Source of the DNA: Patescibacteria group bacterium UBA926 | GTDB taxonomy: Bacteria > Patescibacteriota > Doudnabacteria > UBA920 | Length of the DNA: 64,000 nt | Assembly (NCBI GenBank): GCA_002293685.1 | Contig: DBDS01000006.1 | Coordinates: forward strand, 180,909 to 244,908 | Direction: 5' to 3' | Shown here: piece by piece, positions 8,102 through 58,396 of the stretch | Numbering within the stretch: position 1 is the first letter of the stretch | Layout of the letters: every line of letters begins with the position of its first letter | Made by a program: the position numbers and the translations under genes | Notes under the pieces: model-generated | Databases searched by the model: none | Told to the model about the DNA's origin: nothing | The model's input: the letters and a program-made list of their open reading frames with translations, nothing else

Positions 8102-8500
8102 ATGTTGAACTTTTTAAAAAATCTGTTCGGAGCTTCGAAACCTAACAGCAAAATAATTGCGGCGAAAGTTACAAAAATAGAAAAGCATCCTAACGCGGAC
8201 CGTCTCCGCGTTATTAGTTTAACCGATGGGGTAAAGATTATTGAACCGGTTGTTTGTGGTGCGTTCAATTTCGAAGTAGGGGACATCGTTGCATTAGCTC
8301 TGCCTGGCGCGACTATTGCCCAGAACATTCATTCAGAAGAGCATGAATCGTTTGTATTAAGTACAGCCAAGATCCGCGGCATAGAAAGTCAGGGAATGAT
8401 TTGCGCTGAATTTGAACTCGGACTAACCAATACTCCAGGCGATAAACCCGAAATTATGATATTGCCACCAGACACAAAACTTGGTAAAATGGTTGTCTAA
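8102..8500 (+). CDS. stand-alone tRNA-binding domain protein (homolog of PheT N-terminal B1 domain / CsaA-Myf fold)
   Basis: KHPNADRLRVI...GMICAEFELG matches PheT N-terminal tRNA-binding domain. Confidence 0.6.
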   Translation: MLNFLKNLFGASKPNSKIIAAKVTKIEKHPNADRLRVISLTDGVKIIEPVVCGAFNFEVGDIVALALPGATIAQNIHSEEHESFVLSTAKIRGIESQGMICAEFELGLTNTPGDKPEIMILPPDTKLGKMVV

Positions 8501-8501
8501 T

Positions 8502-9641
8502 ATGTCACATTTAATTATTCCCTCAGACGAAGAAAACCGTCTTAAAATTGAACTCGATAAACGAACCGACGCAGAAGCTGGCCGCATCCGTAGGTATTTA
8601 GAGATGGAGGATCTGTCTCGTGCAGAGTCAGGGCCGCTTCGTGAACTAATCGACAGAATCACAAGTCTTCCACAGTTCAACGATTTTGATATTATTCAAA
8701 TTCCTGAAATCGTTCCGGCGAGCGAAAGCTTTGATTTGTTCAATTTTCCGGCAGACCATCCAGCACGCAGCAAAAGTGATACTTATTACGTAGACGAAGA
8801 AAATATTCTTCGCACTCACACCACCGTGATGTGGTACTACTACTTCGCCCAAGAAGAGATTCGTACCAAAATCGCCGAGAACAAACCGTTAGGTGTTTTG
8901 TCTTACGGAAAAGTTTACCGTAAAGATGAAATTGACCGTAATCACATGAACATCTTCCATCAAGTTGATGGTTTGTACTTACATCCAACAAGCGAAAAAA
9001 CTATCACTCAAGATGACTTGAAAGATATTTTAGTTAATGTTGTGAAAGCTGCTTTCGGTGAAGATATCAAATATCGATTCAACGATGACAATTTCCCTTA
9101 CACGCATTCATCCCTCGAAATGGAAGTAGACAAAGACGGGAAATGGGTAGAAGTGCTTGGCGCAGGTTTAGTACAACCAGGCGTTTTAGAAAAACTGAAC
9201 GTTGATCCTAATCAATACAATGGTTGGGCGTTTGGTTTCGGCTTAGAGCGCTTAGCGATTATTGGCATGGAGCTTCCAGATATTCGTTTACTATGGAGTA
9301 AAGATGAACGCGTAATCAAACAACTCAAACTCGGTCAGAAATATGTTGAAGTAAGTAAGTACCCACCAATTGTCCGTGATATTTCCTTTATTGTTGATAA
9401 AACTTTTGAACCGAACAATTATTTCGACTTAATTCGCGATATCGGCGGCGACCTTGTAGAGGAAGTAGAACTACTTGATAAGTACGAAAACGCAGAAAAG
9501 TTTGGCGCCGACAAAGTTTCATACACTTACCGAATCACTTATCGTTCAACTGAACGAACCTTAGAAACCTCAGAAGTAGACCCACTGCAAGACGAAGTTT
9601 ACAAACAAACAGCTGAACAATTTAACGCGGAGTTGCGCTAA
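8502..9641 (+). CDS. pheS: phenylalanine--tRNA ligase alpha subunit with C-terminal FDX-ACB anticodon-binding domain
   Basis: FNFPADHPAR, RTHTT, FHQVDGLYL, GFGLERLAI class II motifs; C-terminal YPPIVRDISFIVD...VSYTYRITYRS matches PheT C-terminal FDX-ACB domain. Confidence 0.8.
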   Translation: MSHLIIPSDEENRLKIELDKRTDAEAGRIRRYLEMEDLSRAESGPLRELIDRITSLPQFNDFDIIQIPEIVPASESFDLFNFPADHPARSKSDTYYVDEENILRTHTTVMWYYYFAQEEIRTKIAENKPLGVLSYGKVYRKDEIDRNHMNIFHQVDGLYLHPTSEKTITQDDLKDILVNVVKAAFGEDIKYRFNDDNFPYTHSSLEMEVDKDGKWVEVLGAGLVQPGVLEKLNVDPNQYNGWAFGFGLERLAIIGMELPDIRLLWSKDERVIKQLKLGQKYVEVSKYPPIVRDISFIVDKTFEPNNYFDLIRDIGGDLVEEVELLDKYENAEKFGADKVSYTYRITYRSTERTLETSEVDPLQDEVYKQTAEQFNAELR

Positions 9642-45575: not shown

Positions 45576-46967
45576 TCAGGCTTCAGAATTTGCTAAATCA
45601 ACCGTAGTAGCGCCTATTTTGCTCTTAATTGGGAGGGAAAATGCAAAGGTGGAGCCTTTGCCAATTCCAGGGCTTTCGGCCCAAATCCGGCCATTGTGCT
45701 GCTCTACAATGACCTTCGCAACGTACATTCCCAAGCCTAGGCCTGTGGCGTGAGTCGCCGAATCAGAACCTCTTGAATATTTCTTAAACAAAGCTTCTTG
45801 AGTCTCTTTGTCCATCCCCTTTCCAGTATCTTTAACTTTCACCGTAATATTCTCAGCATCGTGCTCTACCATCACTTCAATGTCACCTTGCTTAGAATAT
45901 TTAATAGCGTTATCGATCATGTTGTTTATCACTTGGCGGATTTTTTCGCCATCCATCATAATGTTAGGCAAAGTTTCGCTAGGCGGACGATAAGCAATGT
46001 GTTGCTTGTGCATTTGAGCAAGTGGTTCGAGTTGCTCAACCAATGCAGTTACCATCGGCACAATGTTTGCATCTTGAAAGAAGAATTCCAACTTCCCACG
46101 TTCAATGCGTGATGCGTTTAGCAAATCATCGATGGTAGAAATTTGCGCTTCGTTAGTAACGTTTGTTCTCGCCAATGCGGCTCGAAGCTCTTCAGATAAC
46201 TCGCCAAAGTCCCCCGATAAAATTGCACCAAGATACCACTTAATTGTGGCTGGTGGCGTGCGCAACTGATGACTAGCAATCGAAATAAATTCCGCACGCG
46301 CTTTATCGAGAGCTTTTAGTTGTTCGTTGGCGATTTTTAACTTGTCATAAACTAAGGCTTTATCTAAAGCAACAGCTACTACATCAGCCAGGCTGCTTAT
46401 TGCCTCTTGTTCGAAATCACTTAGCGTGTCATAGCCTCGATTTAAACCAAACATTAACAGACCAATAAGTTCGTCCTGAGTTACAAGAGGATAAATTAGA
46501 ACTGTATCAATATGCCCTTTGATATCTAATTCTTTTAACTTTGATGGCTCAACCCATTCACTAAACAAATCTTGAAAACTTTTTGCAGTTAACCACTTTT
46601 TATCAGATATCACTTCATTCAATACGGCATTCTTTGAAGCATCAAAAGATTGTGTTTTATCCCAAGCAATTCCTTCTGCATTGACAGCGTCAGCAAAACG
46701 CTCGGACATTGAAAAAGGCTGTGGTGTAATCTGTTTAGTTTCCCCAACAACAATGAATATCCCAACCATCTCCATATTTAAATCAACCCGGACGGTGTCC
46801 GAAATCTTTTCGGAAAGTTTATCCGGGTCTAAAGTGAGTAAGCTTATCTGATACAGCTTACGAAGCAGTGAAAGAGTTTTATTGATTACGGCAAGTTCTA
46901 AGCTATGCTTATAGATTTGCTCATTCAACTGCTGCAAATTTGGTTCACTTGCAGCTGTGTTAGCCAT
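45576..46967 (-). CDS. sensor histidine kinase (GAF-like N-terminal region, HisKA, HATPase_c); no adjacent response regulator
   Basis: H-box SIASHQLRTP, N/G boxes DNAIKYS, DTGKGMD, GLGLGMY. Confidence 0.8.
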   Translation of the reverse strand: MANTAASEPNLQQLNEQIYKHSLELAVINKTLSLLRKLYQISLLTLDPDKLSEKISDTVRVDLNMEMVGIFIVVGETKQITPQPFSMSERFADAVNAEGIAWDKTQSFDASKNAVLNEVISDKKWLTAKSFQDLFSEWVEPSKLKELDIKGHIDTVLIYPLVTQDELIGLLMFGLNRGYDTLSDFEQEAISSLADVVAVALDKALVYDKLKIANEQLKALDKARAEFISIASHQLRTPPATIKWYLGAILSGDFGELSEELRAALARTNVTNEAQISTIDDLLNASRIERGKLEFFFQDANIVPMVTALVEQLEPLAQMHKQHIAYRPPSETLPNIMMDGEKIRQVINNMIDNAIKYSKQGDIEVMVEHDAENITVKVKDTGKGMDKETQEALFKKYSRGSDSATHATGLGLGMYVAKVIVEQHNGRIWAESPGIGKGSTFAFSLPIKSKIGATTVDLANSEA

Positions 46968-46983
46968 TTTTTATTTTTTTAAA

Positions 46984-47289
46984 CTATCTTAAATTTGAAG
47001 GGATATCGTTTGCAGGAAGCTCAGCCAACAAATCTTGAACAGCATCTTTACAAACTTCTCTAGAAACCTGTCCGAAAAGACGAGAATACTGTTCGACTAA
47101 TCGGTTAAGCACTTCTTTTGAATCCCCTTCAAAAGTAACTTGCTCGTTGTTTGCGTCAGAAATATTGAACCCGACAACTTTCTTAGCTTCTTGCCATGCG
47201 ACTGGACCAATAACAAGCTCTTGCTCTTTGATTATTCTCAAAGAGATTTGAGTGAATACTGCTAATTCATCTTGAGTAGTAGTTGTCAT
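46984..47289 (-). CDS. hypothetical protein
   Basis: ORF only. Confidence 0.3.
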   Translation of the reverse strand: MTTTTQDELAVFTQISLRIIKEQELVIGPVAWQEAKKVVGFNISDANNEQVTFEGDSKEVLNRLVEQYSRLFGQVSREVCKDAVQDLLAELPANDIPSNLR

Positions 47290-47293
47290 ATAT

Positions 47294-48121
47294 TTAAGAT
47301 TTTTGAATCTTATAGTAAATATTGCCGATTGAGAATATAGCTAGGGTCATTAAGTACAGTGAGAGCATGAAAACATAATCGTTGAAACCACCAACGTACC
47401 ACGTTTCATTATTTACTTGGTAAGAGAACTGGAAATCTGATATGAACTGGACTGTAAGTGCGGCGATCAATAAAATAATCGGTTTTCTCATTAACCCACC
47501 CAATGAGTTATTAGAAATAAATAGAGTAAATAAAGCTATTGATATATAAATGACTTGACCAATTTGCCAACCAAAATCCAAGAATATTAACAAAGGTGTG
47601 CTATCAGTGAAATCATATTCGCGTAATAGGATTAAATATGAACCCAATAATGCAACAAATGGAATTAATATTGCAACAAATTTATTAATAAATGATTGAG
47701 AACTAAATTGCACACCCAAAACTTTAGCAAGTTGATATGCTCCTAAAATATATAACAAAACACTAACATAAAAGAAAACATCCCCAATTGATGGATATGG
47801 AACTTCAATACCTAATATATAAATGTAGTAATTATATAATAATGTACCTATAAATTGGGCCAATAAACCTGAAGACAAAGAGAAAATAGCCATACCAAAT
47901 TTACTCTTAAGACCGCCCCATAATTTAGCGTAATAAAGTCCTGCGATTCCACCAAATAAAGGGAACAAAATCAAAAGATTTGTAAACAGATCATTTTCTA
48001 TACCTTCGGTTAAAAACCGAAGGTAAATTGACAACCACCATAAACTTAAGGCTATAAAGAGTATGGTCGCGACCATAAATCCCTTACTTTCCTTAAATTG
48101 TTCCAAAAAATATTGTCTCAT
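47294..48121 (-). CDS. hypothetical polytopic membrane protein
   Basis: 7-8 hydrophobic helices. Confidence 0.4.
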   Translation of the reverse strand: MRQYFLEQFKESKGFMVATILFIALSLWWLSIYLRFLTEGIENDLFTNLLILFPLFGGIAGLYYAKLWGGLKSKFGMAIFSLSSGLLAQFIGTLLYNYYIYILGIEVPYPSIGDVFFYVSVLLYILGAYQLAKVLGVQFSSQSFINKFVAILIPFVALLGSYLILLREYDFTDSTPLLIFLDFGWQIGQVIYISIALFTLFISNNSLGGLMRKPIILLIAALTVQFISDFQFSYQVNNETWYVGGFNDYVFMLSLYLMTLAIFSIGNIYYKIQKS

Positions 48122-48227
48122 AAATTACATACTATATATTAATATATATCATAAAAATTTCCTTTCTACAATTTTACAAGAAGTATCCACATAATTAGAA
48201 CGAAATTTAATGGAAGGTTGATCGAAA

Positions 48228-48905
48228 TTATTTTCTTATGATTGGTGCAACAATGGTTTTGTGTTTCCAGTAAATACAATCCTTTGGAGGATTAACTGCG
48301 CAAACTTTGAACTTTATGTCTTTGAAACCAGCCTTCTTTAATAACGCTTTATGCTCAGCAGAGATTGTTTTAGGTTCATCAGAAAAATAAGTAAAGACAC
48401 CATCGTCTTTTAATAATCTATGTGCTTCTTTAAAGAATGGGAAGAATTGAAAGAATTCTACTTCCTTGTCCAACGGACATGAATCAAAGAGAATACCATC
48501 AAAACTTTTATCGGGGAGGTTTTTTGTAACATCTTCCCAGAAACCTTTTAAGATTTTTAGTCTTTCGCTTTTAATCGCTGCTGGAAATTTCTTCTTTGCT
48601 GAAGCTATTACCAATGGGTGGCATTCAACAACAACGTGTGATTTCATTTTTTTAACACTTTGAATAAATCCAGCTGAAATCCCCATACCAAATCCAACTT
48701 CTAAAACAGAACCGCCTTTTGAAGTCGCTATAGTTGCCAACTCTTTCATATAGGGCTTTTCCCAGTCCTGCATAATCTGATTAACTAACTTTTTATTTCC
48801 CTTATTAAAATGCATCACCAACTCTTTTTTGTTGAAATCTAAGACAGTTTTTAGATACTTATCTTTAACTTTTTTTGAATACTTCCCAACAGTTTTGCTT
48901 ATCAT
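48228..48905 (-). CDS. guanidinoacetate N-methyltransferase-like (RMT2 family) SAM-dependent methyltransferase
   Basis: WEKPYMKELATIATSKGGSVLEVGFGMGISAG and downstream region closely follow the GAMT pattern WETPYM...SKGGRVLEVGFGMAIAA. Confidence 0.6.
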   Translation of the reverse strand: MISKTVGKYSKKVKDKYLKTVLDFNKKELVMHFNKGNKKLVNQIMQDWEKPYMKELATIATSKGGSVLEVGFGMGISAGFIQSVKKMKSHVVVECHPLVIASAKKKFPAAIKSERLKILKGFWEDVTKNLPDKSFDGILFDSCPLDKEVEFFQFFPFFKEAHRLLKDDGVFTYFSDEPKTISAEHKALLKKAGFKDIKFKVCAVNPPKDCIYWKHKTIVAPIIRK

Positions 48906-48934
48906 GTTTATACTAAAATTAATTATTATTAGAA

Positions 48935-49327
48935 TTATATCAAATTATGGTCCGGATATTTGGTACCCCTTATCACAAAATTCACTTCTAAGTCCTTAAG
49001 GTCAAACAGGTCAATAAAATATCGCTTAATCTTTTCTTGATCTAAACCATTCTGGCATGTATATACATCTGCACTAATAAATCCACGCTTCGGGAATGTA
49101 TGGATACTAATATGACTCTCGGCTATAATAACAAAACCACTCCAGCCACCTGGGTCTTTTAAGTCATTTTCTGGAGCAAATACCACCAAAGGTTCGATTA
49201 AGGCATTCATGCCCAACTCTTTTGGTAACTCATTTAACAATCTCTTAACTAAAGCTTCGTCATTAAGTAATTCTGCACTCCCCCCATATCCATCAAGGGT
49301 GAGATGTTCTCCAAAATGCTGACTCAT
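48935..49327 (-). CDS. speH: S-adenosylmethionine decarboxylase proenzyme, pyruvoyl-dependent (class 1b, SpeH-like)
   Basis: AESHISIHTFP self-cleavage motif; 130 aa. Confidence 0.7.
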   Translation of the reverse strand: MSQHFGEHLTLDGYGGSAELLNDEALVKRLLNELPKELGMNALIEPLVVFAPENDLKDPGGWSGFVIIAESHISIHTFPKRGFISADVYTCQNGLDQEKIKRYFIDLFDLKDLEVNFVIRGTKYPDHNLI

Positions 49328-49404
49328 AATATGTGAAAATTATGTGAATATCTAAGTACCTTAATTATAGCAGATTGGTCCGAAATCAAAGTAAATACTA
49401 AGTT

Positions 49405-50109
49405 TTATAACTCATCTGCGAAACTTTCCCAGATAGCTGTGGAAAATTTATCATCCTGGGTTTCTATGTGATTTTGAAGAAGTAAAGCAAAATGGTCTAA
49501 GCTCACTGCTTCCAATCCTTCAATTAACCCATCAGCACTTTTCGCATTCATCCTCAAACCGTTTCCAATTTTATCTACAGACTGGTGATGAGCACAATTC
49601 ACAGGCTTCTCACCTTCTCCAGTCATATCAGCTAACCGCGTACCACTTTCCACAATCATTTTATTACCATGATAAGTAGACACGTTATCGTAACTTGAAC
49701 CCTCTGGAACCATATGACCTTCAACGTGCTGAATTAAACTTCCACCCAACACAACATTCACCAACTGCATTCCTCTGCAAATTCCAAGCAGAGGTTTTTT
49801 ATCGGTCATCACCATTTTAATAATTTTCGTTTCAAGCAAATCACGAAGTGGATTTGTCACTTTCGTTTCAGGAACAGCCTCTTGTGAATACATCTTTGGA
49901 TTTATATCCGAACCCCCGGCCAATAGCACACCATCACACTGATGATATAATCTCGTCACCATCTCCTCACTGAACAAAACTGAACACAACAACGGCATCA
50001 CTCCCCGCTCAGTCAATTTTTTCACATACGTTTGATACAAAAAATCAATTTGCTGAACTTTCGCCCCCGCATCAACTTTGTACGGCAAGATAACTAATAC
50101 TTTTTTCAT
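49405..50109 (-). CDS. gamma-glutamyl-amine hydrolase, PuuD/peptidase C26 family (class I GATase-like)
   Basis: LLAGGSDINP, LLGICRGMQ, AHHQSV motifs. Confidence 0.7.
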   Translation of the reverse strand: MKKVLVILPYKVDAGAKVQQIDFLYQTYVKKLTERGVMPLLCSVLFSEEMVTRLYHQCDGVLLAGGSDINPKMYSQEAVPETKVTNPLRDLLETKIIKMVMTDKKPLLGICRGMQLVNVVLGGSLIQHVEGHMVPEGSSYDNVSTYHGNKMIVESGTRLADMTGEGEKPVNCAHHQSVDKIGNGLRMNAKSADGLIEGLEAVSLDHFALLLQNHIETQDDKFSTAIWESFADEL

Positions 50110-50159
50110 AAATTTGAATTTAATAAATTTGGAAAGGGGTAGATTGTACCCCTTTCACA

Positions 50160-50951
50160 CTAAACAGTTCGCACAAATTGCAAACTTAGCCGAATAAGAG
50201 CGTCCTGGCAAAGCTGATGACACCTAGCCGCGAACTTTTGAATCTTCTCATAATCAGCAGTTGAACCGCCCATTCGGAACTCAATAGTTCCATGAACAGT
50301 AATGCGAATCAACTGCCAATTCTTGCGCGGGTCTTTGTCGAAGCCTTTCTCCAAAGCGTCCTCATAAAACGCTCCAACAGACTCATAAGGTTTAGGAATG
50401 TAATCAGGCGCCATCGTCTGATAAATCCGAAGCCTCTCACCGTTACTATTATTGATGCACTCACACAAATCTTCCCACTCAGGAATGACTTTGTTGTATA
50501 CCAATAGCGCTGTTTCGAGATCTGGCATACCAACATGAACATGTGTACCAGCGACTCGACAAGCTGCCAACAAAGTTTCTCTTGGCATATCTTTGACAAT
50601 GCGCTGATATCTGCCCGTGGGGTCATTGTAAACCGACAGATCCATATCCTCACCGGCGACTTCCATGAATGAATCATAGATTTCCAGCTCAGCTAATGCT
50701 TTAGTAATTTCTCTATCGTTTTCACGGAGAGCATCTACAAGAGCATACAGCCTGACCGGCCCTACCCGATCCTCTAGCTGACAACCAGAAAGTTCGTAAC
50801 CAAACCTTCCATCAGTTGGTAAAATCTTCAGAACTCTTTCCGTTTCAGGAATTGGTTCTCCAAGAATATTTACCAAAAACCTCTCGCGTTCAACTCCGAT
50901 ATTTAGAACCTTATCGGGATTGAACTTAAACAACTGCTTGAACTTTTTCAT
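50160..50951 (-). CDS. carboxylate-amine ligase, GCS2 (YbdK) family
   Basis: IGVERERF, GTHVHVG, GTIEFR motifs. Confidence 0.7.
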   Translation of the reverse strand: MKKFKQLFKFNPDKVLNIGVERERFLVNILGEPIPETERVLKILPTDGRFGYELSGCQLEDRVGPVRLYALVDALRENDREITKALAELEIYDSFMEVAGEDMDLSVYNDPTGRYQRIVKDMPRETLLAACRVAGTHVHVGMPDLETALLVYNKVIPEWEDLCECINNSNGERLRIYQTMAPDYIPKPYESVGAFYEDALEKGFDKDPRKNWQLIRITVHGTIEFRMGGSTADYEKIQKFAARCHQLCQDALIRLSLQFVRTV

Positions 50952-51347
50952 ATTTCCTCCTAACTTTTTTGTTTTCTAGGCCACGACGATGAATTCACCG
51001 AGGCCATGAAAAACAAAAAAGCTCCTCATCTTTGTAAACAGAATAATACTGTTTACAAGGACGAAAAGCTTTGCTTTCGTGGTGCCACCTTGTTTTGCCA
51101 TGTGATTAAACATGACCTCGGCCCTTACTCCAAAATGGATATAAAGAATCTTTTGTTTACGGGAGATTAATCCCCGTACCGCCACATCTCACAAATTGAG
51201 TAGCAGAGGTCGCCGCGTTCTTCTGAACTATCTTGACCCAACCCCGTTTTGGTTTTGCAACCTGACGGGATCAAGATATCGGTTTTAGAATTGTGCCTAT
51301 ACAATAATCGATTTTTAGTTTGATGTCAAGGGAGATTATTTGTATGA

Positions 51348-51884
51348 TCAATTGTCCCTAATCATCGCTATCAGCTCCATAGCCTTCTCCACAGCCTCTT
51401 TAGCATTTACAGCTGGTTCAACCATTAGGCGGTTTCGATCATCAAAGTATTTTCCAGCCATTTTATCTGCCCAACCACCAGTACCAGTTACAGCCACAAT
51501 AGGAATGTTCGCCTGATATGCTATCGCCATTTCAGTAAGGGTACCACTACCACCATTGATTGCTATGATAGCGTCGCAAGAAAGTACGAGGTTCAGCTCT
51601 CTGCCACCTCCACGCTCCATACCACTTACGATGATGATATCGACATTTTCTTCGACTATATCCTTACCTTTTCCGTAAGTAACTCCTACGGTAGTCCCAC
51701 CAGCTTTCTTAGCTCCCCTACACGCCGCAGTAGATAAAGAGTCAAAATCCTTTTCCGCACCAAAAAACAGCACAGCTCCTTGTTGAGCAACTTCATAGCC
51801 CACCTCCTCAGCTATTGCTTCAAATTCTTTTGAGTAGTTCAAATCACTGCAACTACCCATCACACCTATTTGAATTGTTTTCAT
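51348..51884 (-). CDS. LOG/TIGR00725-family Rossmann-fold nucleotide-binding protein
   Basis: INGGSGTLTE (GGxGTxxE) motif. Confidence 0.5.
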   Translation of the reverse strand: MKTIQIGVMGSCSDLNYSKEFEAIAEEVGYEVAQQGAVLFFGAEKDFDSLSTAACRGAKKAGGTTVGVTYGKGKDIVEENVDIIIVSGMERGGGRELNLVLSCDAIIAINGGSGTLTEMAIAYQANIPIVAVTGTGGWADKMAGKYFDDRNRLMVEPAVNAKEAVEKAMELIAMIRDN

Positions 51885-52114
51885 AATAATTATTTAGTTA
51901 AACTGTTAAATCTGTTCCCGTAATCTAATATAATTATTTATACTAAACTTCTTTAAAACTTCGCTATTTCATATAATGTACTTGAATAGATTTTATTCAT
52001 ACTGTTATTCTACTTTTAGTTTGAGAAAAAATCTACTGCACTATGACAAATTTTAACAACAAATAAAAAAGGTGTCGGGGACACCTTTTAATTTATGGTA
52101 GGTCAAGTGCATGA

Positions 52115-52579
52115 TCAATGCACGTCTGATATTTCACAATGCATTTGATTAATGGAAATTTCATCACCCACCTCTTTTCCCAAGCATGCTTGAGCAAGTG
52201 GGGCAGCGACTGAAATACTTACTACCTTAACCCCATCAATAGTAATCTCTTCACCCCCAGAACTAGTAACCAAGTAATACATCTTTCGCTTCTTGGTTAG
52301 TATGTCTGTGAGCTCAAATACCGCTCCTAGATAAACTTTATCCTGAGAATTTGCTTGCAATCTACCTAGCGACGAAATCACCTCGCGCAAATCACCTAAC
52401 TGTCGACTTTGAGCCAAAGCTAGATTACTAAGCGAAAATTTATTAGTATCAGAATGACTCACATTCGCACCCGGAGAATCCCACGCCCGCTTTTTATTGC
52501 CTTCGATGGACTCAGTAATAGAGCTTAGTATCTCCTTATACCGTTCCAAAAATTTAGACCTGACAGTTTCTTTATCCAT
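52115..52579 (-). CDS. GreA/GreB C-terminal (FKBP-like) domain protein, Rnk-like
   Basis: C-terminal ...ITIDGVKVVSISVAAPLAQACLGKEVGDEISI matches Gre C-domain; AGGAGG RBS before MDKETV. Confidence 0.4.
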   Translation of the reverse strand: MDKETVRSKFLERYKEILSSITESIEGNKKRAWDSPGANVSHSDTNKFSLSNLALAQSRQLGDLREVISSLGRLQANSQDKVYLGAVFELTDILTKKRKMYYLVTSSGGEEITIDGVKVVSISVAAPLAQACLGKEVGDEISINQMHCEISDVH

Positions 52580-52590
52580 ATTTCCTCCTA

Positions 52591-53676
52591 TCAAAGCACG
52601 GAATCTTCTAACTTCAACCTTTCGGTTTTGGTTTTCAGTAGAAGATATTCTAAAATTTCCAGATCATAACCACCGCTTCCCACAGAATTCGTGGGCCTTA
52701 TTGCCATATTTTCCTTTGCTATTTTCAAATGAGGCTGGCGGAATTTCTCCATCCCTAGGAGAATCGACACCAATCCCTTGATAGAGTTCTGAGCAATAGG
52801 GTTTTCCAAGGACGAACACCTTGAAACTTGCAAAGCAATTGATGGCCTAACCATTATTTTACCAATGCGATTCCTGTACGCTTTTGGTAAATATTGCGTA
52901 CTTTCGTTCCAATAGCGAACATAGCTGATCTCATTACAATCTACGCCCCACAATATGAGATCCATAAGACATATAGGCATCTGAGCACCTCCAGGAGCAA
53001 AGTACTTCTTACCCCCGATTATCTTTGGCTCAAAAAAAGGTCGCAATGAATGAGTAAAAACCTCTGGAGAGATCTGCTTTCTCACTACGACTATATTTTT
53101 AACCATTTCTGAAAAATGATTTACGACTTCTTCACAAATGTTTGCATATTCGGGGTCTAGTAAGTCAAGTGACTGCAGAATCTCGAGCCCTGCTATGCAT
53201 ACTGGTAAATGACGCATTCCACTCACAAAAGAGTCTATAAATATCCTTTCTTCAGAATACATTGTAAAACGTCTCTGATTTTCACCTTTGGGATTTCTTG
53301 GCCCGTAGGTATAGACAGTATCAACTGGTAGCTCACGTGTAACTTCCCCAAGTTTTAACAAGACAGGCTCGAGCAGTGGAATGCTAGCAATTTTTACACC
53401 CCAACGATTAAGGGATGAGGCTAACATGCTCAAATCCCTGGTAACAGCCATGGCTGGTAACGCACTCATGGAAATGATGTTTTGGTATCCTACACTTGAG
53501 AAAGTCTTATCAAGTAGATTTAACATCTTAGAGGTGTCACCCGTTTGACTCAAGAAAGGAAATTCATTCATAAAACCCTTATCCCAGCCCAACGGATCAA
53601 GTTCAGCCACTGTTGCATCAATAAGATTCGAAAGTTTATACACGGAATACTCCGAACTCTCTTTAATAATATTCAT
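52591..53676 (-). CDS. indoleamine 2,3-dioxygenase-like (IDO/PrnB fold) heme enzyme
   Basis: FAPGGAQMPICLMDLILWGV ~ IDO [21 protein letters not shown]; proximal-His-like RQPHLKI; C-terminal GSGGYDLEILEYL ~ GTGGTDLMNFL. Confidence 0.5.
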   Translation of the reverse strand: MNIIKESSEYSVYKLSNLIDATVAELDPLGWDKGFMNEFPFLSQTGDTSKMLNLLDKTFSSVGYQNIISMSALPAMAVTRDLSMLASSLNRWGVKIASIPLLEPVLLKLGEVTRELPVDTVYTYGPRNPKGENQRRFTMYSEERIFIDSFVSGMRHLPVCIAGLEILQSLDLLDPEYANICEEVVNHFSEMVKNIVVVRKQISPEVFTHSLRPFFEPKIIGGKKYFAPGGAQMPICLMDLILWGVDCNEISYVRYWNESTQYLPKAYRNRIGKIMVRPSIALQVSRCSSLENPIAQNSIKGLVSILLGMEKFRQPHLKIAKENMAIRPTNSVGSGGYDLEILEYLLLKTKTERLKLEDSVL

Positions 53677-53822
53677 AATTCCTCCTTCAATTCTATTCCT
53701 GGATTAAATCAACCGCAGGTTACGACCCCAGACCAAATCTAGAGGCAAAATCTATGGTAGATTTTTTTAACTCTTTATATCTGCTAAAATATATTCATAA
53801 TTTAATAACATAATTTAATAGC

Positions 53823-54371
53823 ATGGAAATTTACTTAGTCACAAAAAATCAAGGAAAGCTGATGGCGGCTCAAAAAGTTTTTAAAGACTCTAATATTAAA
53901 CTTCTCCCTGTTGAAAAAGATTACCCAGAAATTCAAGCCAACTCCTCCATCCAAATTGCTGAACATACAAGTATACAGGTCTCCGCTGAACTTGGAAAGC
54001 CAGCACTAAGGGAAGATCATAGTATTTGCCTATACGCCCTGAATGGATTACCAGGACCTTTTATGAGCTATTTTGGAGAGAAGATGTCTGATAAGGATTT
54101 ATTAAATCTTTTTAAGAATCAACAGAATCGAACTGGGTATTTTGAGGTTGCAACTGTATTAGCTTTTCCCGATGGTAAAACCATCAACTCAATATTTAAA
54201 GTAAATTTTACTCTAAGCGAACAGAGTAAGGGAGAACTACAAAGCGGATGGAATAGGATTATTATGCTTGAAGGAGAAACAAGAACCCTAGCTGAGTACC
54301 CAGAATCTGAAAGGCTACATATATGGGAACAAGGATATAAATCCATTGCAAATCAATTAGGGAGAGCCTAA
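53823..54371 (+). CDS. Ham1/RdgB-family non-canonical purine NTP pyrophosphatase homolog (divergent)
   Basis: LVTKNQGKL, REDHSICLYALNGLPGPF, ATVLAFPDG motifs. Confidence 0.55.
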   Translation: MEIYLVTKNQGKLMAAQKVFKDSNIKLLPVEKDYPEIQANSSIQIAEHTSIQVSAELGKPALREDHSICLYALNGLPGPFMSYFGEKMSDKDLLNLFKNQQNRTGYFEVATVLAFPDGKTINSIFKVNFTLSEQSKGELQSGWNRIIMLEGETRTLAEYPESERLHIWEQGYKSIANQLGRA

Positions 54372-55031
54372 TCTAATAAAGACACCGCGCAGAACATCAC
54401 GTGCGCCCTCACTGGTTTTTGAGCTATACTCATGTACTTGACCATTGGGTTCAATTTTGTTTTTCTGTAATAATTCCAATACCTGCTGATATGTAAGTAA
54501 TATCATCGGGAGTCCTAAGTTATTAAAATAAATAGGTCCGTTCAGTGCTTTTTTTAATTTACTCTCACCTCCATTTGCTACAAAAATATTTAAACACAAA
54601 AAGCCACCATGTTTCAGAATTCTAGATATTTCTGAAATTCCATTTTCTAAAATTTGTATAGAATTTCCATTATGCAATACCCCGCTTGCTATAACTACAT
54701 CAAATTGTGAATTTTTATAAGGGACATTTTGAAAGTCAGCTTTAATCACCCTATTTTCCGTATATCGATCACTAAACCCAAATGTACTGAATTTTTTTCT
54801 TGTCGCATTAACCATCTCAGTATGATAATCGCAAGCATAGACATCGAACCCCAGCTTTAAAGATAGCTCGGAGTTTCTTCCCGCACCACTTCCTAAGTCT
54901 AATAACTTAAGATTAAATGGATCTTTAAAGCCCCGCAAAAAATCTTCCCAGTATTTAGGATGGGGATAATTCTCAAACTCATTTACCACATGCAGATCAT
55001 TCCAATAATCCGACTGGGTCATAGTCTTCAT
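54357..55031 (-). CDS. class I SAM-dependent methyltransferase
   Basis: LLDLGSGAGRNS motif I. Confidence 0.65.
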   Translation of the reverse strand: MKTMTQSDYWNDLHVVNEFENYPHPKYWEDFLRGFKDPFNLKLLDLGSGAGRNSELSLKLGFDVYACDYHTEMVNATRKKFSTFGFSDRYTENRVIKADFQNVPYKNSQFDVVIASGVLHNGNSIQILENGISEISRILKHGGFLCLNIFVANGGESKLKKALNGPIYFNNLGLPMILLTYQQVLELLQKNKIEPNGQVHEYSSKTSEGARDVLRGVFIRLGSP

Positions 55032-55041
55032 GGTTAATAAA

Positions 55042-56115
55042 TTATAGTTTACTTAATACTCTATACCCTCGATTATGAACCTTCGTGATAATGCAATCTA
55101 ATCCAGCTTTGGAAAATTCCTTAATACACTTCTTCTCATCACTTGTTATTGCAAAAAAAGCTGGTCCTACACTAGACAATGATAATGTATATACCTTGGG
55201 GTCCAAAAAGAGCTTCTTAATTCTCCGTGCAATACCTACCACAAGAGGATAAGCAAATGAGCAATTTTCTATGCTCCCATACAAAAACCTATAATTATAG
55301 ATAACTTTCGAGGCTGATTTCAGATCTCCGACTAACATCGCAGGGAGTGTGAAATGAATAAGCTGGTAGGCGACTTGCGTCCCCCATTTTTTTCCAGTTT
55401 CAATAAATTTTTTTATATTCTTTACTTCTTGCTTAATGAGTTCAGTAGAATCTCTTGGATTATAGTTTCTGGGAATCCCTATTACCACTTTCAAATCCTT
55501 TGAAATATTCATCTTAGCTATAATCTTGCTTTCCCCCGATATAACTATAAACCCAGCCTTAACTAGTGATGCGGCGGCGGCACCTCCAATGCACTGAACA
55601 TGTTGTAGCTCCGTAGAATTTCCATCAATTTCTTCTCCATGATTCTGAGCTAAATATAAAATTAAATCTGAATTCTTAATTGGCTTGCCATATATTTCAT
55701 TTATGGCAATAGCAATAGACGAAATCAACCCACTGCTAGAACCGAAACCGTAATGATTAAGGTTAACCTCTTCTTTAATGCTAATATCAAAACCATTCTT
55801 AGTATTTAAAGCTCTTTTCATCAACCTAGCTGCATGGACCGCTAACTGAGGCCTCGAACATCCGGGTAATACATTAATCCTAGAATCCTTTCGTATCCTA
55901 ACTAGAACTATTCGGTAAAGCTGTATTGGGAATACGATTTCTCCCGGGGTGTAAATTTTTGAATCATTAATTGCTATTAGTGAAGGATCTAAAGCCATAG
56001 CATTTAATCTGTACGGACATTTTATCACTACGCTTGAGTACGCAGGTCTAACCCTACCAACTACCATCTTTGGTGAGTTAAGAATCGTTCCAATCTTAAA
56101 TTTGGGAGATTTCAT
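55042..56115 (-). CDS. GHMP kinase family protein
   Basis: HYGFGSSSGLISSIAIA (GHMP motif II). Confidence 0.55.
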   Translation of the reverse strand: MKSPKFKIGTILNSPKMVVGRVRPAYSSVVIKCPYRLNAMALDPSLIAINDSKIYTPGEIVFPIQLYRIVLVRIRKDSRINVLPGCSRPQLAVHAARLMKRALNTKNGFDISIKEEVNLNHYGFGSSSGLISSIAIAINEIYGKPIKNSDLILYLAQNHGEEIDGNSTELQHVQCIGGAAAASLVKAGFIVISGESKIIAKMNISKDLKVVIGIPRNYNPRDSTELIKQEVKNIKKFIETGKKWGTQVAYQLIHFTLPAMLVGDLKSASKVIYNYRFLYGSIENCSFAYPLVVGIARRIKKLFLDPKVYTLSLSSVGPAFFAITSDEKKCIKEFSKAGLDCIITKVHNRGYRVLSKL

Positions 56116-56629
56116 GGCGGGCCTTTACTTTGTTAATAGATTGAATAAAAATCACAGCTCTAGATACAGTTTTTTCTACCTCCCCTTCTAAGTTTGAGCA
56201 GATTAGCAATGGAATTTCTAATTGTTCAGACAAGCGATAAGCTTCATTTCTAGACCGCTTTAAGTCTAATTGTAAACTTGCCAGTTCAGTAAATCTTTTT
56301 TTCTTCTTGTCTGCTTTCAGTCTTTTTAACAAATGCTCGAGTGGTGGATCAAGTAAAATTAGTGCTTTTGTCCTTTCATTAGTATAATTCGTAGCTCTGT
56401 TTGGATTTTCAAACTCTAAATGCTCATCAATGAGCACCAAACCATTTGTATTATCCAATATCTCATACATAGCAAAGTCAGCCAGCGCCTTCTCTTGATA
56501 CTGACGAAATAACTCACTGTAGGTGATAGTCCTGCAATCCAGATCTTTGATTGAACCAATCATGGATAATAGAGTAGTCTTACCGCTCCCACTGACACCC
56601 GCAACCTTCACCGTCCAAAAATTTCCCAT
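56096..56629 (-). CDS. P-loop NTPase / small-molecule kinase-like protein
   Basis: VAGVSGSGKTTL Walker A; overlaps downstream GHMP gene start. Confidence 0.5.
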   Translation of the reverse strand: MGNFWTVKVAGVSGSGKTTLLSMIGSIKDLDCRTITYSELFRQYQEKALADFAMYEILDNTNGLVLIDEHLEFENPNRATNYTNERTKALILLDPPLEHLLKRLKADKKKKRFTELASLQLDLKRSRNEAYRLSEQLEIPLLICSNLEGEVEKTVSRAVIFIQSINKVKARHEISQI

Positions 56630-56812
56630 ATAAATGGTTTAATTTAAAGTTAAATAAAATATACAAATACATTATCCATGTTGTCAATAGTTGACAACAA
56701 AGAAAATTGTTGCTAAAAATTAATAACAAGAGAGGTTGTTTGAAACCCTCAATTTCTCAGTATATTTACTATTTTATTTGTTTTTTAGTTATATTTCATT
56801 AACAGTGGAAAA

Positions 56813-57586: not shown

Positions 57587-58396
57587 ATGTCACAGACACC
57601 ATTTAAAAAACTTGATAATCATTGGGGCCAAAAGTTTAATGCTTTTATCAAAGATGAAAGCACTAATATAAGTGGGACCATCAAAGACCGGAGAAATAAA
57701 CACATAATCTCCCGTGCTCAAGCTCTCCACGTCGATAAGTTGGTTATTATTACCTCAGGTAATAACGGATATAGCCTTGGGAATTTAGCAAGAAAAAGCA
57801 ATATTAAAATAGTTTCCATTATCGATAAAAATCGACCGCAGAAAGTCAAAAAAGAACTACTTCAGGTTTGCTATGACGTTATCGAACTTAATCTACACAG
57901 CAAATATCTCCTACCCGAAGATACAGTTAGATATGCCCGTGAAAATGATCAGGAGGTGATTTGGGACGTTACAAATGGCTATGAGGAAGGCTATGAAGAT
58001 GTGATTAAAGAAATCTATGCCAAAATCACCCCAGATTATATAGTAGTCCCTATCGGCAGCGGTGGAATTTTTTTCGCTTTTGCAGAAAAAACCGAACAAC
58101 TCAAACTGCCAACTAAAATCATTGGGGTCGATCTACAGCATAAAGCCTATAGCTTCGCAGATAAATTATATAACCCTTGGCCTTCTCCTTACGAGAAAAG
58201 TATCGAAAATTTCCGCCTTAACGGTCATAAAATAATTAGTCTTTCTGACACTGAAATCAAGCAAACTTATAACAAGTTTAAAAAACATATTGATTGTGAG
58301 CCTTCTGCCAGTGTCGTATTCGCCGCCCCAGATAAGTTCAAATTTGAACCAGCTGACAAAGTGGTATTTCTAAACACAGGAAAAGGCCTAATTTAA
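57587..58396 (+). CDS. fold-type II PLP-dependent enzyme (Trp-synthase-beta/cysteine-synthase/threonine-synthase superfamily)
   Basis: ESTNISGTIKDRRN (SFKDRG-like PLP-Lys motif), glycine loop GSGGIF. Confidence 0.5.
   Translation: MSQTPFKKLDNHWGQKFNAFIKDESTNISGTIKDRRNKHIISRAQALHVDKLVIITSGNNGYSLGNLARKSNIKIVSIIDKNRPQKVKKELLQVCYDVIELNLHSKYLLPEDTVRYARENDQEVIWDVTNGYEEGYEDVIKEIYAKITPDYIVVPIGSGGIFFAFAEKTEQLKLPTKIIGVDLQHKAYSFADKLYNPWPSPYEKSIENFRLNGHKIISLSDTEIKQTYNKFKKHIDCEPSASVVFAAPDKFKFEPADKVVFLNTGKGLI

Follow-up and report, generated by a model that had tools for sequence, protein, structure and literature searches.

Transient gamma-glutamylation is carried out by ligase/hydrolase pairs in several settings, namely EgtA/EgtC (ergothioneine), PuuA/PuuD (putrescine use) and BtrJ/BtrG (butirosin). 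T-box riboswitches, for their part, include a type with a short Stem I that has been described for actinobacterial ileS leaders. Among pyruvoyl decarboxylases, homologues of S-adenosylmethionine (AdoMet, SAM) decarboxylase (AdoMetDC) have given rise to arginine decarboxylases on at least three occasions and to an ornithine decarboxylase once, candidate-phyla-radiation bacteria and DPANN archaea being among the organisms concerned (Li et al., 2023, PMC10407285), and N-methylagmatine is a building block of the antibiotic saskemycin, with a proposed origin via an SznE-like arginine methyltransferase (PMC12637814). Here, we relate to these systems a cluster of five genes, for a SLOG/LOG-like protein, a GCS2/YbdK-type ligase, a Peptidase C26 protein, an AdoMetDC-fold decarboxylase and a GAMT-like methyltransferase, in a stretch of 64,000 nucleotides (nt) from Patescibacteria group bacterium UBA926 (assembly GCA_002293685.1, contig DBDS01000006.1, positions 180,909 to 244,908), hereafter the window. 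Loci from other genomes that were compared with the window carry L-numbers; L136-138 represent a sister strain (L136, GCA_022842405.1, is 93-97% identical to the window).

Five genes in separate units

A sequence-only reading of this DNA had described five co-directional open reading frames and proposed that they form a self-contained pathway. The description was accurate as far as it went: all five frames are present, separated in transcription order by 396 nt (SLOG to GCS2), 50 nt (GCS2 to C26), 77 nt (C26 to AdoMetDC-fold) and 29 nt (AdoMetDC-fold to GAMT-like), but it missed that every one is on the minus strand and that the 396-nt gap is no empty spacer, holding a promoter-like site and a T-box leader. 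Its family calls withstood profile searches, the genes belonging to PF18306 (with PF03641 below cut-off), PF04107, PF07722, PF02675 and GAMT/PF27704, and its remark on a reduced genome fits the nearest relatives, which are Saccharibacteria/Patescibacteria assemblies.

The proposed unity of the five genes, by contrast, does not hold, and in this respect the observation stood while its interpretation was borne out only in part. The AdoMetDC-like and GAMT-like genes occur alone, with no ligase, C26 or SLOG gene, in L004 (an uncultured Saccharibacteria metagenome-assembled genome (MAG), ~80% identical in DNA over the shared block) and in L006, and at least 80 loci have the ligase and a hydrolase with neither an AdoMetDC-like nor a GAMT-like gene. 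In the sister strain, the block of SLOG gene, T-box, ligase, C26 and decarboxylase is 96.8% identical to that of the window, but the GAMT-like gene is replaced by one for a 290-amino-acid (aa) methyltransferase whose best solved relatives are PRMT8, PRMT7, PRMT3 and PRMT1 (~3e-8); positions 48950..47954 of the window have no counterpart there. The methyltransferase is not a spermidine synthase, as shown below, and conservation of all five genes together is confined to near-identical strains.

Judged from sequence comparison, the five genes thus appear to be separate units that lie side by side as a mosaic in a variable slot, rather than one conserved pathway: a tryptophan (Trp) T-box-controlled gamma-glutamyl ligase/hydrolase cassette (unit A), an arginine-decarboxylase/guanidino-methyltransferase pair (unit B) and a separate SLOG gene (unit C). 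We put the probability of this reading as a whole at about 0.5, with high confidence in the architecture and the pairing of genes and low confidence in the substrates. It builds on what is directly observed of the gene families, of the T-box architecture and its conservation, of the replacement patterns and of the strain-level cassette swap.

A candidate tRNA-Trp T-box before the ligase gene

In the direction of transcription, the 396-nt gap contains a sigma-70-like promoter (TTGACA, 17-nt spacer, TATTGT; 51329..51301) that agrees with the consensus at 10 of 12 positions, a consensus match alone in a region where the total of such sites is not above the expectation from shuffled sequence. The leader that follows (51277..51009) matches the Rfam T-box model RF00230 with 31.5 bits (E=2.6e-5 in a 501-nt search) and does not reach the gathering score of 93. 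In the alignment, 10 nt stand in for 87 model positions of Stem I, and neither alignment nor fold of the window leader contains the canonical long Stem I with its K-turn, specifier-loop S-turn and distal tRNA-elbow platform. Stem I is here a 48-nt hairpin (51277..51230) with a 5-nt 3' bulge, UUGGG, which carries the specifier UGG (51240..51238). Further downstream, the T-box core GGUGGCACC (51089..51081) lies in the bulge of an antiterminator, CAAGGUGGCACCACGAAAG..UUCGUCCUUG (51092..51056), which overlaps a 22-base-pair (bp) terminator hairpin with its U-run (51070..51009; folding energy -33 kcal/mol), such that the two structures are mutually exclusive. They are followed by the Shine-Dalgarno sequence GGAGG (50960..50956) and the ATG of the ligase gene.

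The same elements recur before ligase genes elsewhere. In 61 of 84 upstream regions (83 fetched loci and the window), the core GGUGG[CU]ACC is found 130-400 nt before the start of the ligase gene, and 17 of 20 further short loci give Rfam T-box matches of 30.6-74.4 bits, none of which reaches the gathering threshold. Across loci, Stem I comprises a lower and an upper helix, split by the 5-nt 3' bulge YUGGG; UGG is invariant in this bulge in 35 leaders, and both helices covary. A 35-sequence anchored alignment has 96.3% of its cells paired and compensatory changes in 11 of 13 pairs, with a 5' register that was picked by maximising pairs and is therefore biased towards pairing; none of 500 shuffles paired as highly, and slid registers fall to 30-56%. 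The register was anchored because minimum-free-energy (MFE) folds leave two choices of partner for the 5' U, namely either flanking purine.

Both the specifier codon and the discriminator match tRNA-Trp. The T-box bulge is mostly UGGC, complementary to G73, and G73 is found in five of the six distinct tRNA-Trp genes that are co-located with the ligase. ARAGORN placed tRNA-Trp(CCA) genes in eight ligase loci, where this is the commonest tRNA, far above any other; a class-Ib aminoacyl-tRNA synthetase (aaRS) gene lies within the sampled flanks of 22 of 83 loci, and the three representative proteins tested all exceed the TIGR00233 trpS cut-off. Within the 64-kb window there are no trpS or tRNA genes, and in the ligase loci no such T-box was seen before trpS itself. 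By sequence and fold, the leader appears to be an unannotated tRNA-Trp T-box, predicted to drive the ligase and hydrolase genes by antitermination, and it would be a minimal T-box, below the annotation threshold and with an unprecedented target.

Two other identities were considered for this region. As the first bulge base varies between U and C, the specifier could have been YUG (Leu); we reject this because the UGGC bulge needs G73, because the neighboring tRNA-Trp has G73 and because trpS and tRNA-Trp are co-located with the ligase. A guanidine or other riboswitch was likewise rejected, as nothing but the T-box matched in the gap.

In the full-leader MFE fold, GGCCGAGGUCAUG (51115-51135, upstream of the T-box core) pairs with CAUGGCCUCGG (50985-51010, just past the terminator U-run), which could be chance or an extra structural layer between terminator and ribosome-binding site. 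In L050, L051 and L087, a small gene sits between T-box and ligase (that of L050, at 4636-4959, encodes a 107-aa protein with a hydrophobic N-terminus), and thus the regulated operon can have an extra first gene.

A compact ligase with interchangeable partners

The gene behind the leader (50951..50160), the first that the T-box would control, encodes a 263-aa protein. Its N-terminal half alone matches PF04107 (GCS2; 22.3 bits against a cut-off of 21), the TIGR02050 score of 35.7 bits falls short of the cut-off of 176.4, and the protein lacks the length of the full-length architecture (about 350-380 aa). With an AlphaFold (AF2) model of the ligase (pLDDT 95.8), Foldseek retrieved first YbdK (1tt4/1r8g; TM 0.71/0.69, E 7e-9), then the plant glutamate-cysteine ligase 2gwc and then glutamine synthetases, the match spanning only about half of the target (TMt 0.52-0.54). 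There are 463 homologues, nearly all patescibacterial, with the invariant motifs ERE, YELSxxQxE, HxHxGM and HGTIEFRM; E21-R22-E23, E53, Q58, E60, H137, H139, E224 and R226 are invariant in 25 sequences. By analogy with the GCL/GS superfamily, these residues would bind metal, ATP and glutamate, and the protein is most likely an ATP-dependent carboxylate-amine ligase joining the gamma-carboxylate of glutamate to an amine.

Its presumed partner in the window is the 234-aa product of the next gene (50109..49405), a Peptidase C26 protein (PF07722: 3.9e-47, 161 bits, cut-off 20.5) and putative gamma-glutamyl-amide hydrolase. It has a Cys-His-Glu triad, with a GICRG nucleophile elbow and H-x-E, and matches in the PDB Lin1909 (3fij, 7.9e-26), a glutamine amidotransferase of P. 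aeruginosa (7d4r, 5e-18) and PuuD (6vtv, 1e-14). In the 77 readable loci, the gene directly 3' of the ligase, on the same strand, always comes from one of five unrelated amide-cleaving families: AstE/AspA deacylases (22-25 loci), GGACT/AIG2 gamma-glutamyl cyclotransferases (14 loci), M20 peptidases (8-12 loci), class-II glutamine amidotransferases closest to EgtC (9 loci) and Peptidase C26 (the window, the sister strain and L048). Four of these families include enzymes that cleave gamma-glutamyl bonds, namely EgtC, BtrG/GGCT/ChaC, Dug and PuuD. This non-homologous replacement of the hydrolase is the strongest evidence for a pair that makes a gamma-glutamyl amide and subsequently cleaves it, and it bears out the logic of transient gamma-glutamylation that had earlier been proposed by analogy with PuuA/PuuD and EgtA/EgtC. 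Together with the leader, it supports the view that ligase and hydrolase would constitute a gamma-glutamylation/deglutamylation pair induced by Trp starvation.

As to what is glutamylated, the Trp T-box before the ligase disfavors cysteine. The T-box, the trpS and tRNA-Trp genes of related loci, a PrnB-family enzyme (see below) and chorismate-mutase-methyltransferase fusions, present in 11 ligase loci, point instead to tryptophan or a close relative, and away from the polyamine link that the sequence-only reading had drawn for the cassette.

The 50-nt spacer between ligase and C26 gene contains a 10-bp GC-rich hairpin (50156..50132) with a poor U-run after the stem (CAAAUUUAUU), which may be a weak terminator, a processing site or a stabilizer; in L048, ligase and hydrolase are only 20 nt apart.

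A putative decarboxylase/guanidino-methyltransferase pair

The fourth gene in transcription order (49327..48935) encodes a 130-aa protein with the class-1b AdoMetDC fold of pyruvoyl decarboxylases (PF02675: 2e-25, 89.6 bits) and the sequence ESHISIHTFP. It belongs to a Patescibacteria-wide subfamily with more than 2213 homologues at 65-70% identity, in which the processing Glu-Ser (E70-S71) and the catalytic H76 and C91 are invariant (120 sequences). The WPE that follows HT in the AdoMetDCs of T. maritima and A. aeolicus is not kept: W70-P71-E72 of T. maritima correspond to F-P-K in the window protein, and across the 120 sequences HTWPE becomes H-T-F-P-[K/R/A/L], with position 72 being K in 67, R in 18, A in 17, L in 9 and never E. 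The subfamily also has a 7-residue insertion relative to true AdoMetDCs. The missing Glu (E72 of T. maritima) presumably equals human E247, which binds the ribose of AdoMet. An internal control is provided by L070, whose AdoMetDC-spermidine synthase fusion (PF02675 and PF01564, with GGGDGY) keeps HTWPE; the fusion (8266-9402, 378 aa) is encoded three genes downstream from a T-box/ligase/AstE cassette and is evidence that canonical spermidine synthesis does exist in some Patescibacteria. No aminopropyltransferase or spermidine synthase is encoded by the scanned genes of the window or by those of nine neighborhoods of subfamily members, in agreement with the earlier remark that none was recognizable in or near the cluster.

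On these comparisons, the protein is probably, if not provably, no AdoMet decarboxylase, contrary to its earlier designation; it is predicted to act on arginine or methylarginine, and its subfamily appears to be a further, uncharacterized clade derived from AdoMetDC. It is not a SpeDC-type ornithine decarboxylase, the signature of which, QLIETS..GHF..Y (Fig. S5, PMC10407285), is absent, the window protein having IIAESHISIHTFP..VYTC.

The last gene (48905..48228), part of a swappable cassette, encodes a 225-aa putative SAM-dependent guanidino N-methyltransferase. The strong resemblance to GAMT noted earlier is confirmed by PDB matches to human GAMT (E=4.5e-32, 114.7 bits, residues 42-225) and rat GAMT (1.5e-30), and the new Pfam family PF27704 (GuanidinoAc_N-MeTrfase) is recorded for all its close homologues. 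Motif I, LEVGFGMG, and E49 and D141 are invariant in 25 sequences. The two acids correspond to rat E45 and D134, which we take to be guanidino-binding/catalytic residues, just as we take rat L170-T171 to bind the carboxylate of guanidinoacetate. The CNLTSWG loop of the rat enzyme is deleted in the family and flanked by an invariant FTYFSDE. The motif after FTY is FSDE in decarboxylase-linked members and FSRV in those linked to arginine:glycine amidinotransferase (AGAT), which, given the residue roles that we presume, fits a distal ammonium in the one substrate and a distal carboxylate in the other.

The partners of GAMT-like genes elsewhere point the same way. A gene for pyruvoyl-dependent arginine decarboxylase (PvlArgDC) immediately precedes them in L011 and L025; in L009 it lies three genes upstream (PF01862 4.6e-26 and 3.4e-28). 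In L016 (6755-8552; Moorena producens 3L), a close homologue of human AGAT (1jdx, 2.9e-117) is directly upstream. In L006, a Staskawiczbacteria MAG, a small EamA/SMR-like membrane protein is encoded between the AdoMetDC-like and GAMT-like genes, with an NNMT/PNMT-type methyltransferase next; other neighbors of GAMT-like genes include SemiSWEET, MFS and EamA proteins and a 190-aa multi-pass membrane protein. Two unrelated guanidino-N-methyltransferase families in one slot and two unrelated pyruvoyl decarboxylase families beside the GAMT-like gene argue for arginine/agmatine chemistry. We hence predict that the GAMT-like enzyme methylates the guanidino group of agmatine, not that of guanidinoacetate; that it acts on a guanidino compound, as had been suggested, agrees with the PvlArgDC and AGAT neighbors, the PRMT-like swap and the motif after FTY.

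That the GAMT-like protein is a divergent spermidine synthase is ruled out by its score of ~115 bits with GAMT against 16-20 for the spermidine synthases of the PDB, and by its having GFGMG, not the GGGDG that keeps out the carboxylate of SAM. Spermine_synth (PF01564) matches with 26 bits over the catalytic core only, without the N-terminal tetramerization domain, and the NCBIfam aminopropyltransferase equivalogs give 20-37 bits against cut-offs of 250-300. Since LEVGFGMG is kept and the GGGDG acid of aminopropyltransferases is absent, the aminopropyl-transfer role once entertained for this protein is unlikely.

A wider polyamine scheme can nonetheless be drawn, which we consider unlikely: a true AdoMetDC would supply decarboxylated SAM (dcSAM), the GAMT-like protein (in the sister strain, the PRMT/Trm5-TYW2-like one) would be a non-canonical aminopropyltransferase, and ligase and C26 protein would recycle a gamma-glutamyl-polyamine like PuuA/PuuD. 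The decarboxylase does pass the Pfam and TIGR03330 cut-offs, retains the processing Ser, the His, the Cys and the proline of HTxP, and has no spermidine synthase among the scanned genes nearby, but the WPE Glu is absent from 120 of 120 subfamily members and present in the patescibacterial fusion with spermidine synthase. Likewise, the methyltransferase has weak Spermine_synth/polyamine-aminopropyltransferase matches (26-37 bits), and its sister-strain substitute also matches TRM5-TYW2, a family of enzymes that transfer SAM's aminocarboxypropyl group; yet the GAMT-like protein scores ~100 bits higher with GAMT than with any aminopropyltransferase, has LEVGFGMG in place of the GGGDG of dcSAM users, and is paired elsewhere with PvlArgDC and AGAT, makers of guanidino compounds. 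Finally, PuuD and the related 7d4r of P. aeruginosa are similar to the C26 protein, and ligase, C26 and decarboxylase genes are contiguous in three lineages, whereas the ligase cassette has a Trp T-box, travels with trpS and tRNA-Trp and lacks the decarboxylase in at least 80 loci.

Less probable again is that the methyltransferase slot holds a protein arginine methyltransferase, with, for example, a ribosomal, membrane or kinase protein as its target, and that the decarboxylase is unrelated to it. Yeast RMT2, a GAMT-family enzyme, methylates ribosomal protein L12, and PRMTs methylate proteins; both occupants of the slot come from families that include protein arginine methyltransferases (GAMT/RMT2 and PRMT1/3/7/8). 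The identity of 55-70% that the GAMT-like proteins keep across distant Patescibacteria and DPANN lineages would suit a housekeeping modifier, as would the consistent presence of the same three neighbors, a membrane protein, a small protein and a kinase. However, these genes also adjoin small-molecule enzymes and transporters (PvlArgDC, AGAT, SemiSWEET, MFS, EamA, SMR-like), the motif after FTY changes with the product of the partner enzyme, and the ~40 residues beyond the catalytic core include no evident protein-recognition domain.

Further observations concern the occupants and companions of this slot. An AGAT homologue is directly upstream of the GAMT-family gene also in L015 and L031, and such AGAT and GAMT pairs, found in a cyanobacterium and a Bacteroidota MAG, would form a complete two-enzyme creatine-type pathway. 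A family of ~190-aa membrane proteins, apparently multi-pass and without a Pfam match, accompanies GAMT-like or AdoMetDC-like genes in Patescibacteria (L001 6362-6952, L007 374-952, L133 4392-4958, L130 5508-6089, L125 992-1528); as SemiSWEET has the equivalent position in cyanobacteria, they are possibly a novel family of transporters for cationic guanidino compounds. The GAMT slot of L048 holds EamA and LPG_synthase_C genes, as do those of L131 and L132. Stand-alone LPG_synthase_C genes occupy the slot, just before the 275-aa membrane protein described below, in L048 (8992-9909), L131 (7459-8406), L132 (5408-6307) and L007 (2179-3123); given that this is the domain of aminoacyl-tRNA-dependent lipid aminoacylation, they may represent a split aminoacyl-lipid synthase.

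Proposed mechanism and its weighing

For the substrates, the products and the direction of regulation, we infer the following scheme. In unit A, the anticodon of uncharged tRNA-Trp would pair with UGG in the Stem I bulge and its acceptor end with the UGGC antiterminator bulge, the terminator would not form, and ligase and C26 genes would be transcribed. The ligase would then use ATP to activate the gamma-carboxylate of glutamate and join it to an amine, and the hydrolase would later remove the gamma-glutamyl group. With tryptophan or a tryptophan-related amine as substrate, the pair might trap, protect or salvage tryptophan in shortage; as a working hypothesis, we assume that uncharged tRNA-Trp induces a cycle of capture or retention via gamma-Glu-Trp. 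In unit B, the AdoMetDC-fold decarboxylase, having lost the ribose-binding Glu, would convert arginine to agmatine, which the GAMT-family enzyme would methylate with SAM to N-methylagmatine, although methylation could also precede decarboxylation; membrane and transporter proteins encoded beside the slot would probably deal with the product. Unit C, the SLOG cluster-4 gene, would be transcribed separately and be at most an occasional accessory of unit A.

Several observations weigh against this scheme, in addition to the register bias of the Stem I alignment. The tRNA-Trp of L047 has A73 facing the C of the bulge. AstE/AspA enzymes are known for alpha-N-acyl bonds, not gamma-glutamyl ones. A ligase and a hydrolase acting on one bond make a futile cycle unless there is an intervening step or compartment, and therefore the benefit for tryptophan supply is speculative. 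As for unit B, the decarboxylase scores 77.6 bits with TIGR03330, just above the cut-off of 75.65. According to a published discriminator, arginine-decarboxylase forms lose a Pro that is conserved in true AdoMetDCs (PMC10407285); the window protein keeps what is likely this Pro, in HTFP, and would thus be classed by that criterion with bona fide AdoMetDCs. The AdoMetDC-like gene is, moreover, far more widespread than the GAMT-like one and is often followed by EamA or LPG_synthase_C genes, such that its main role may be unrelated to guanidino methylation. Lastly, ligase, C26 and decarboxylase genes are contiguous and co-directional, with short gaps, in three lineages (the window, L136-138 and L048); therefore, transcripts begun at the T-box promoter could extend through the decarboxylase to the methyltransferase gene, and the units might be functionally linked after all.

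That the cluster is a random juxtaposition of unrelated housekeeping genes in a small genome is very improbable: the region is a gene-replacement hot spot between near-identical strains, its SLOG gene and upstream block differ between strains, and in gene-dense patescibacterial genomes with short gaps co-direction and short spacing carry little weight, but the pairing of ligase and deglutamylating enzyme is kept across ~80 loci with five partner families, the T-box is kept before the ligase, and the pairing of decarboxylase and guanidino-methyltransferase recurs with non-homologous parts on both sides, which contradicts chance for both pairs.

The SLOG gene and the variable surroundings

The SLOG/LOG-like gene (51884..51348, 178 aa) matches PF18306 (SLOG cluster 4: 4.5e-31, 107.9 bits) and is below cut-off for PF03641 (24.3 against 27), TIGR00730 (34.9 against 96) and TIGR00725, the type to which we assign it (83 against 106.9). 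Its best PDB matches are the Moco carrier protein 2iz5 and 1rcu, and its GGSGTLTE resembles the LOG motif, PGGxGTxxE. The gene sits between a strong terminator-like hairpin (52089..52067) and the promoter-like site of the T-box; therefore, it is probably a separate transcription unit, and co-transcription with the ligase is unlikely. Outside the window, the sister strain and L075 (in the order GCS2-GGACT-LOG, 61% identity) are the only cases in which it adjoins the ligase, and it might conceivably be an accessory of the ligase cassette. A reading of this gene and its neighbors as a defence system was dropped, PADLOC having returned generic methyltransferase matches alone.

Conserved backbones flank the cluster, with sortase, HU and response regulator genes on one side and, on the other, genes for a 275-aa multi-pass membrane protein (48121..47294), a 101-aa protein (47289..46984), a histidine kinase (46967..45576), YjbQ, an MscS-like protein and YceG. 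The three coordinates given are all on the minus strand and span 45576..48121. The 275-aa and 101-aa proteins match no Pfam family. This downstream backbone follows the decarboxylase or methyltransferase slot in L001, L004-L007, L010, L048 and L131-L138, and gene content between the backbones varies even between near-identical strains.

Upstream, positions 51887-56679 of the window are exchanged for another block in the sister strain (L136 4043-7442). The 4.8-kb block of the window comprises a GreA-like gene, PrnB, Ham1, a methyltransferase, a GHMP-kinase/beta-RFAP-synthase-like gene and an AAA protein, and that of the sister strain a Pol-beta nucleotidyltransferase, 414-aa and 235-aa proteins of no known kind and a class-II aldolase. 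This exchange and the swap of GAMT-like for PRMT-like gene 3 kb away mark the region as a replacement hot spot.

The PrnB-family gene of the block (53676..52591, minus strand; PF08933 3e-25) encodes a haem enzyme with PDB matches to PrnB (9dfg, 6e-48; 2v7i, 3e-36). PrnB is known from pyrrolnitrin biosynthesis, and such a gene is unexpected in a reduced patescibacterial genome. It is weakly similar (27% identity, E 5e-5) to a gene just upstream of the T-box in L129, and as a member of a tryptophan-binding family it fits the tryptophan theme of the neighborhood. Its stop and the start of a gene for a 159-aa protein with only the C-terminal domain of GreA/GreB (52115-52594, minus strand) overlap by 4 nt. 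The GHMP-kinase-like gene, weakly similar to beta-ribofuranosylaminobenzene 5'-phosphate synthase, is paired with a gene for a 221-224-aa methyltransferase, with Ham1 nearby, both in the window (54357-56115, minus strand) and in the Jorgensenbacteria locus L049 (3179-4949), where the pair lies beside a T-box/ligase cassette; it may belong to the same tryptophan-related neighborhood. Beyond the block, a gene at 57587-58396 (plus strand) encodes a 269-aa pyridoxal-phosphate-dependent protein of the PALP family, weakly similar to SbnA, cysteine synthase and threonine synthase and, by its scores, not tryptophan synthase beta; it stands beside a TrmB-type regulator, and the pair is kept in the sister strain.

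Implications

Patescibacteria account for a large part of bacterial diversity and rely on hosts for their amino acids, and how they sense or manage shortage has hardly been described. We tentatively propose, as a possibility with the odds against it, that Patescibacteria, as Trp auxotrophs, have a dedicated and hitherto unrecognized tRNA-Trp T-box starvation response, consisting of a ligase for gamma-glutamyl-tryptophan or a precursor and a swappable deglutamylase, and that, separately, many Patescibacteria and DPANN make N-methylagmatine from arginine via an AdoMetDC-derived or PvlArgDC decarboxylase and a GAMT/PRMT-type methyltransferase. If so, the response to tryptophan starvation would be a new kind of amino-acid capture or retention cycle. 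The T-box, missed by standard annotation, is a directly testable switch and ties a large family of 'hypothetical' ligases to tryptophan, and the placement of five unrelated amide-cleaving families beside one ligase is a natural experiment by which the chemistry of the pair is defined. For the thousands of proteins annotated in Patescibacteria as 'S-adenosylmethionine decarboxylases', the decarboxylase result advises against a polyamine label. We know of no role for N-methylagmatine in Patescibacteria or DPANN epibionts. Arginine metabolism is central in Saccharibacteria and essential in one species (PMC11665869), and the predicted route from arginine to methylagmatine would link to it.

Comparison with known systems

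In the literature that we searched, no bacterial link between GAMT and AdoMetDC, no T-box of Patescibacteria and no T-box-controlled GCS2 gene is described, nor are the compact ligase family and the AdoMetDC-derived clade. With the T-box riboswitches of RF00230, the leader shares GGUGGNACC in a 7-nt antiterminator bulge, the competition between antiterminator and intrinsic terminator, a codon-like specifier in Stem I, a bulge base complementary to the tRNA discriminator and, in related loci, a place next to genes for the cognate aaRS and tRNA. It differs in its two-helix Stem I, which has the specifier in the 5-nt 3' bulge YUGGG and lacks K-turn, S-turn and distal platform, in that all examples score under the gathering threshold (30-74 bits against 93), and in its targets, a GCS2-type ligase and a deglutamylase in place of an aaRS, a biosynthetic operon or a transporter.

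As in EgtA/EgtC, PuuA/PuuD and BtrJ/BtrG, the gene for a gamma-carboxylate-activating ligase adjoins that for a remover of the gamma-glutamyl group, and the partner families here include EgtC-like, PuuD-like (C26) and BtrG-like (GGACT) proteins. In contrast to those systems, there is no conserved intervening modifying enzyme and control is by tRNA-Trp; the ligase, moreover, is ~100 residues shorter than YbdK and EgtA and forms a patescibacterial family of its own.

The decarboxylase has in common with SpeDA and SpeDC the class-1b AdoMetDC fold with the pyruvoyl-forming Ser, the His and the Cys, the lack of an accompanying spermidine synthase (here, among scanned genes) and the occurrence in candidate-phyla-radiation bacteria (PMC10407285). 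Unlike SpeDC it is without the signature Q..ETS..GHF..Y, unlike SpeDA it keeps the Pro that those proteins lose, and from true AdoMetDCs its subfamily is set apart by W70F, E72K/R/A and the 7-residue insertion. The methyltransferase resembles the GAMT of the creatine pair in its core with two guanidino-binding acids and in adjoining an enzyme that makes a guanidino compound; however, the partner is a decarboxylase rather than the amidinotransferase AGAT, an acidic FSDE replaces the carboxylate-binding loop, and the predicted substrate is the guanidino amine agmatine instead of guanidinoacetate. A PRMT-like enzyme can replace it, which recalls the SznE-type N-methyltransferases of free arginine with their link to N-methylagmatine (PMC12637814). 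The locus thus presents known kinds of systems in new variants: a sub-threshold minimal T-box, a compact ligase with interchangeable deglutamylases, and an AdoMetDC-derived clade with a GAMT/PRMT-type partner.

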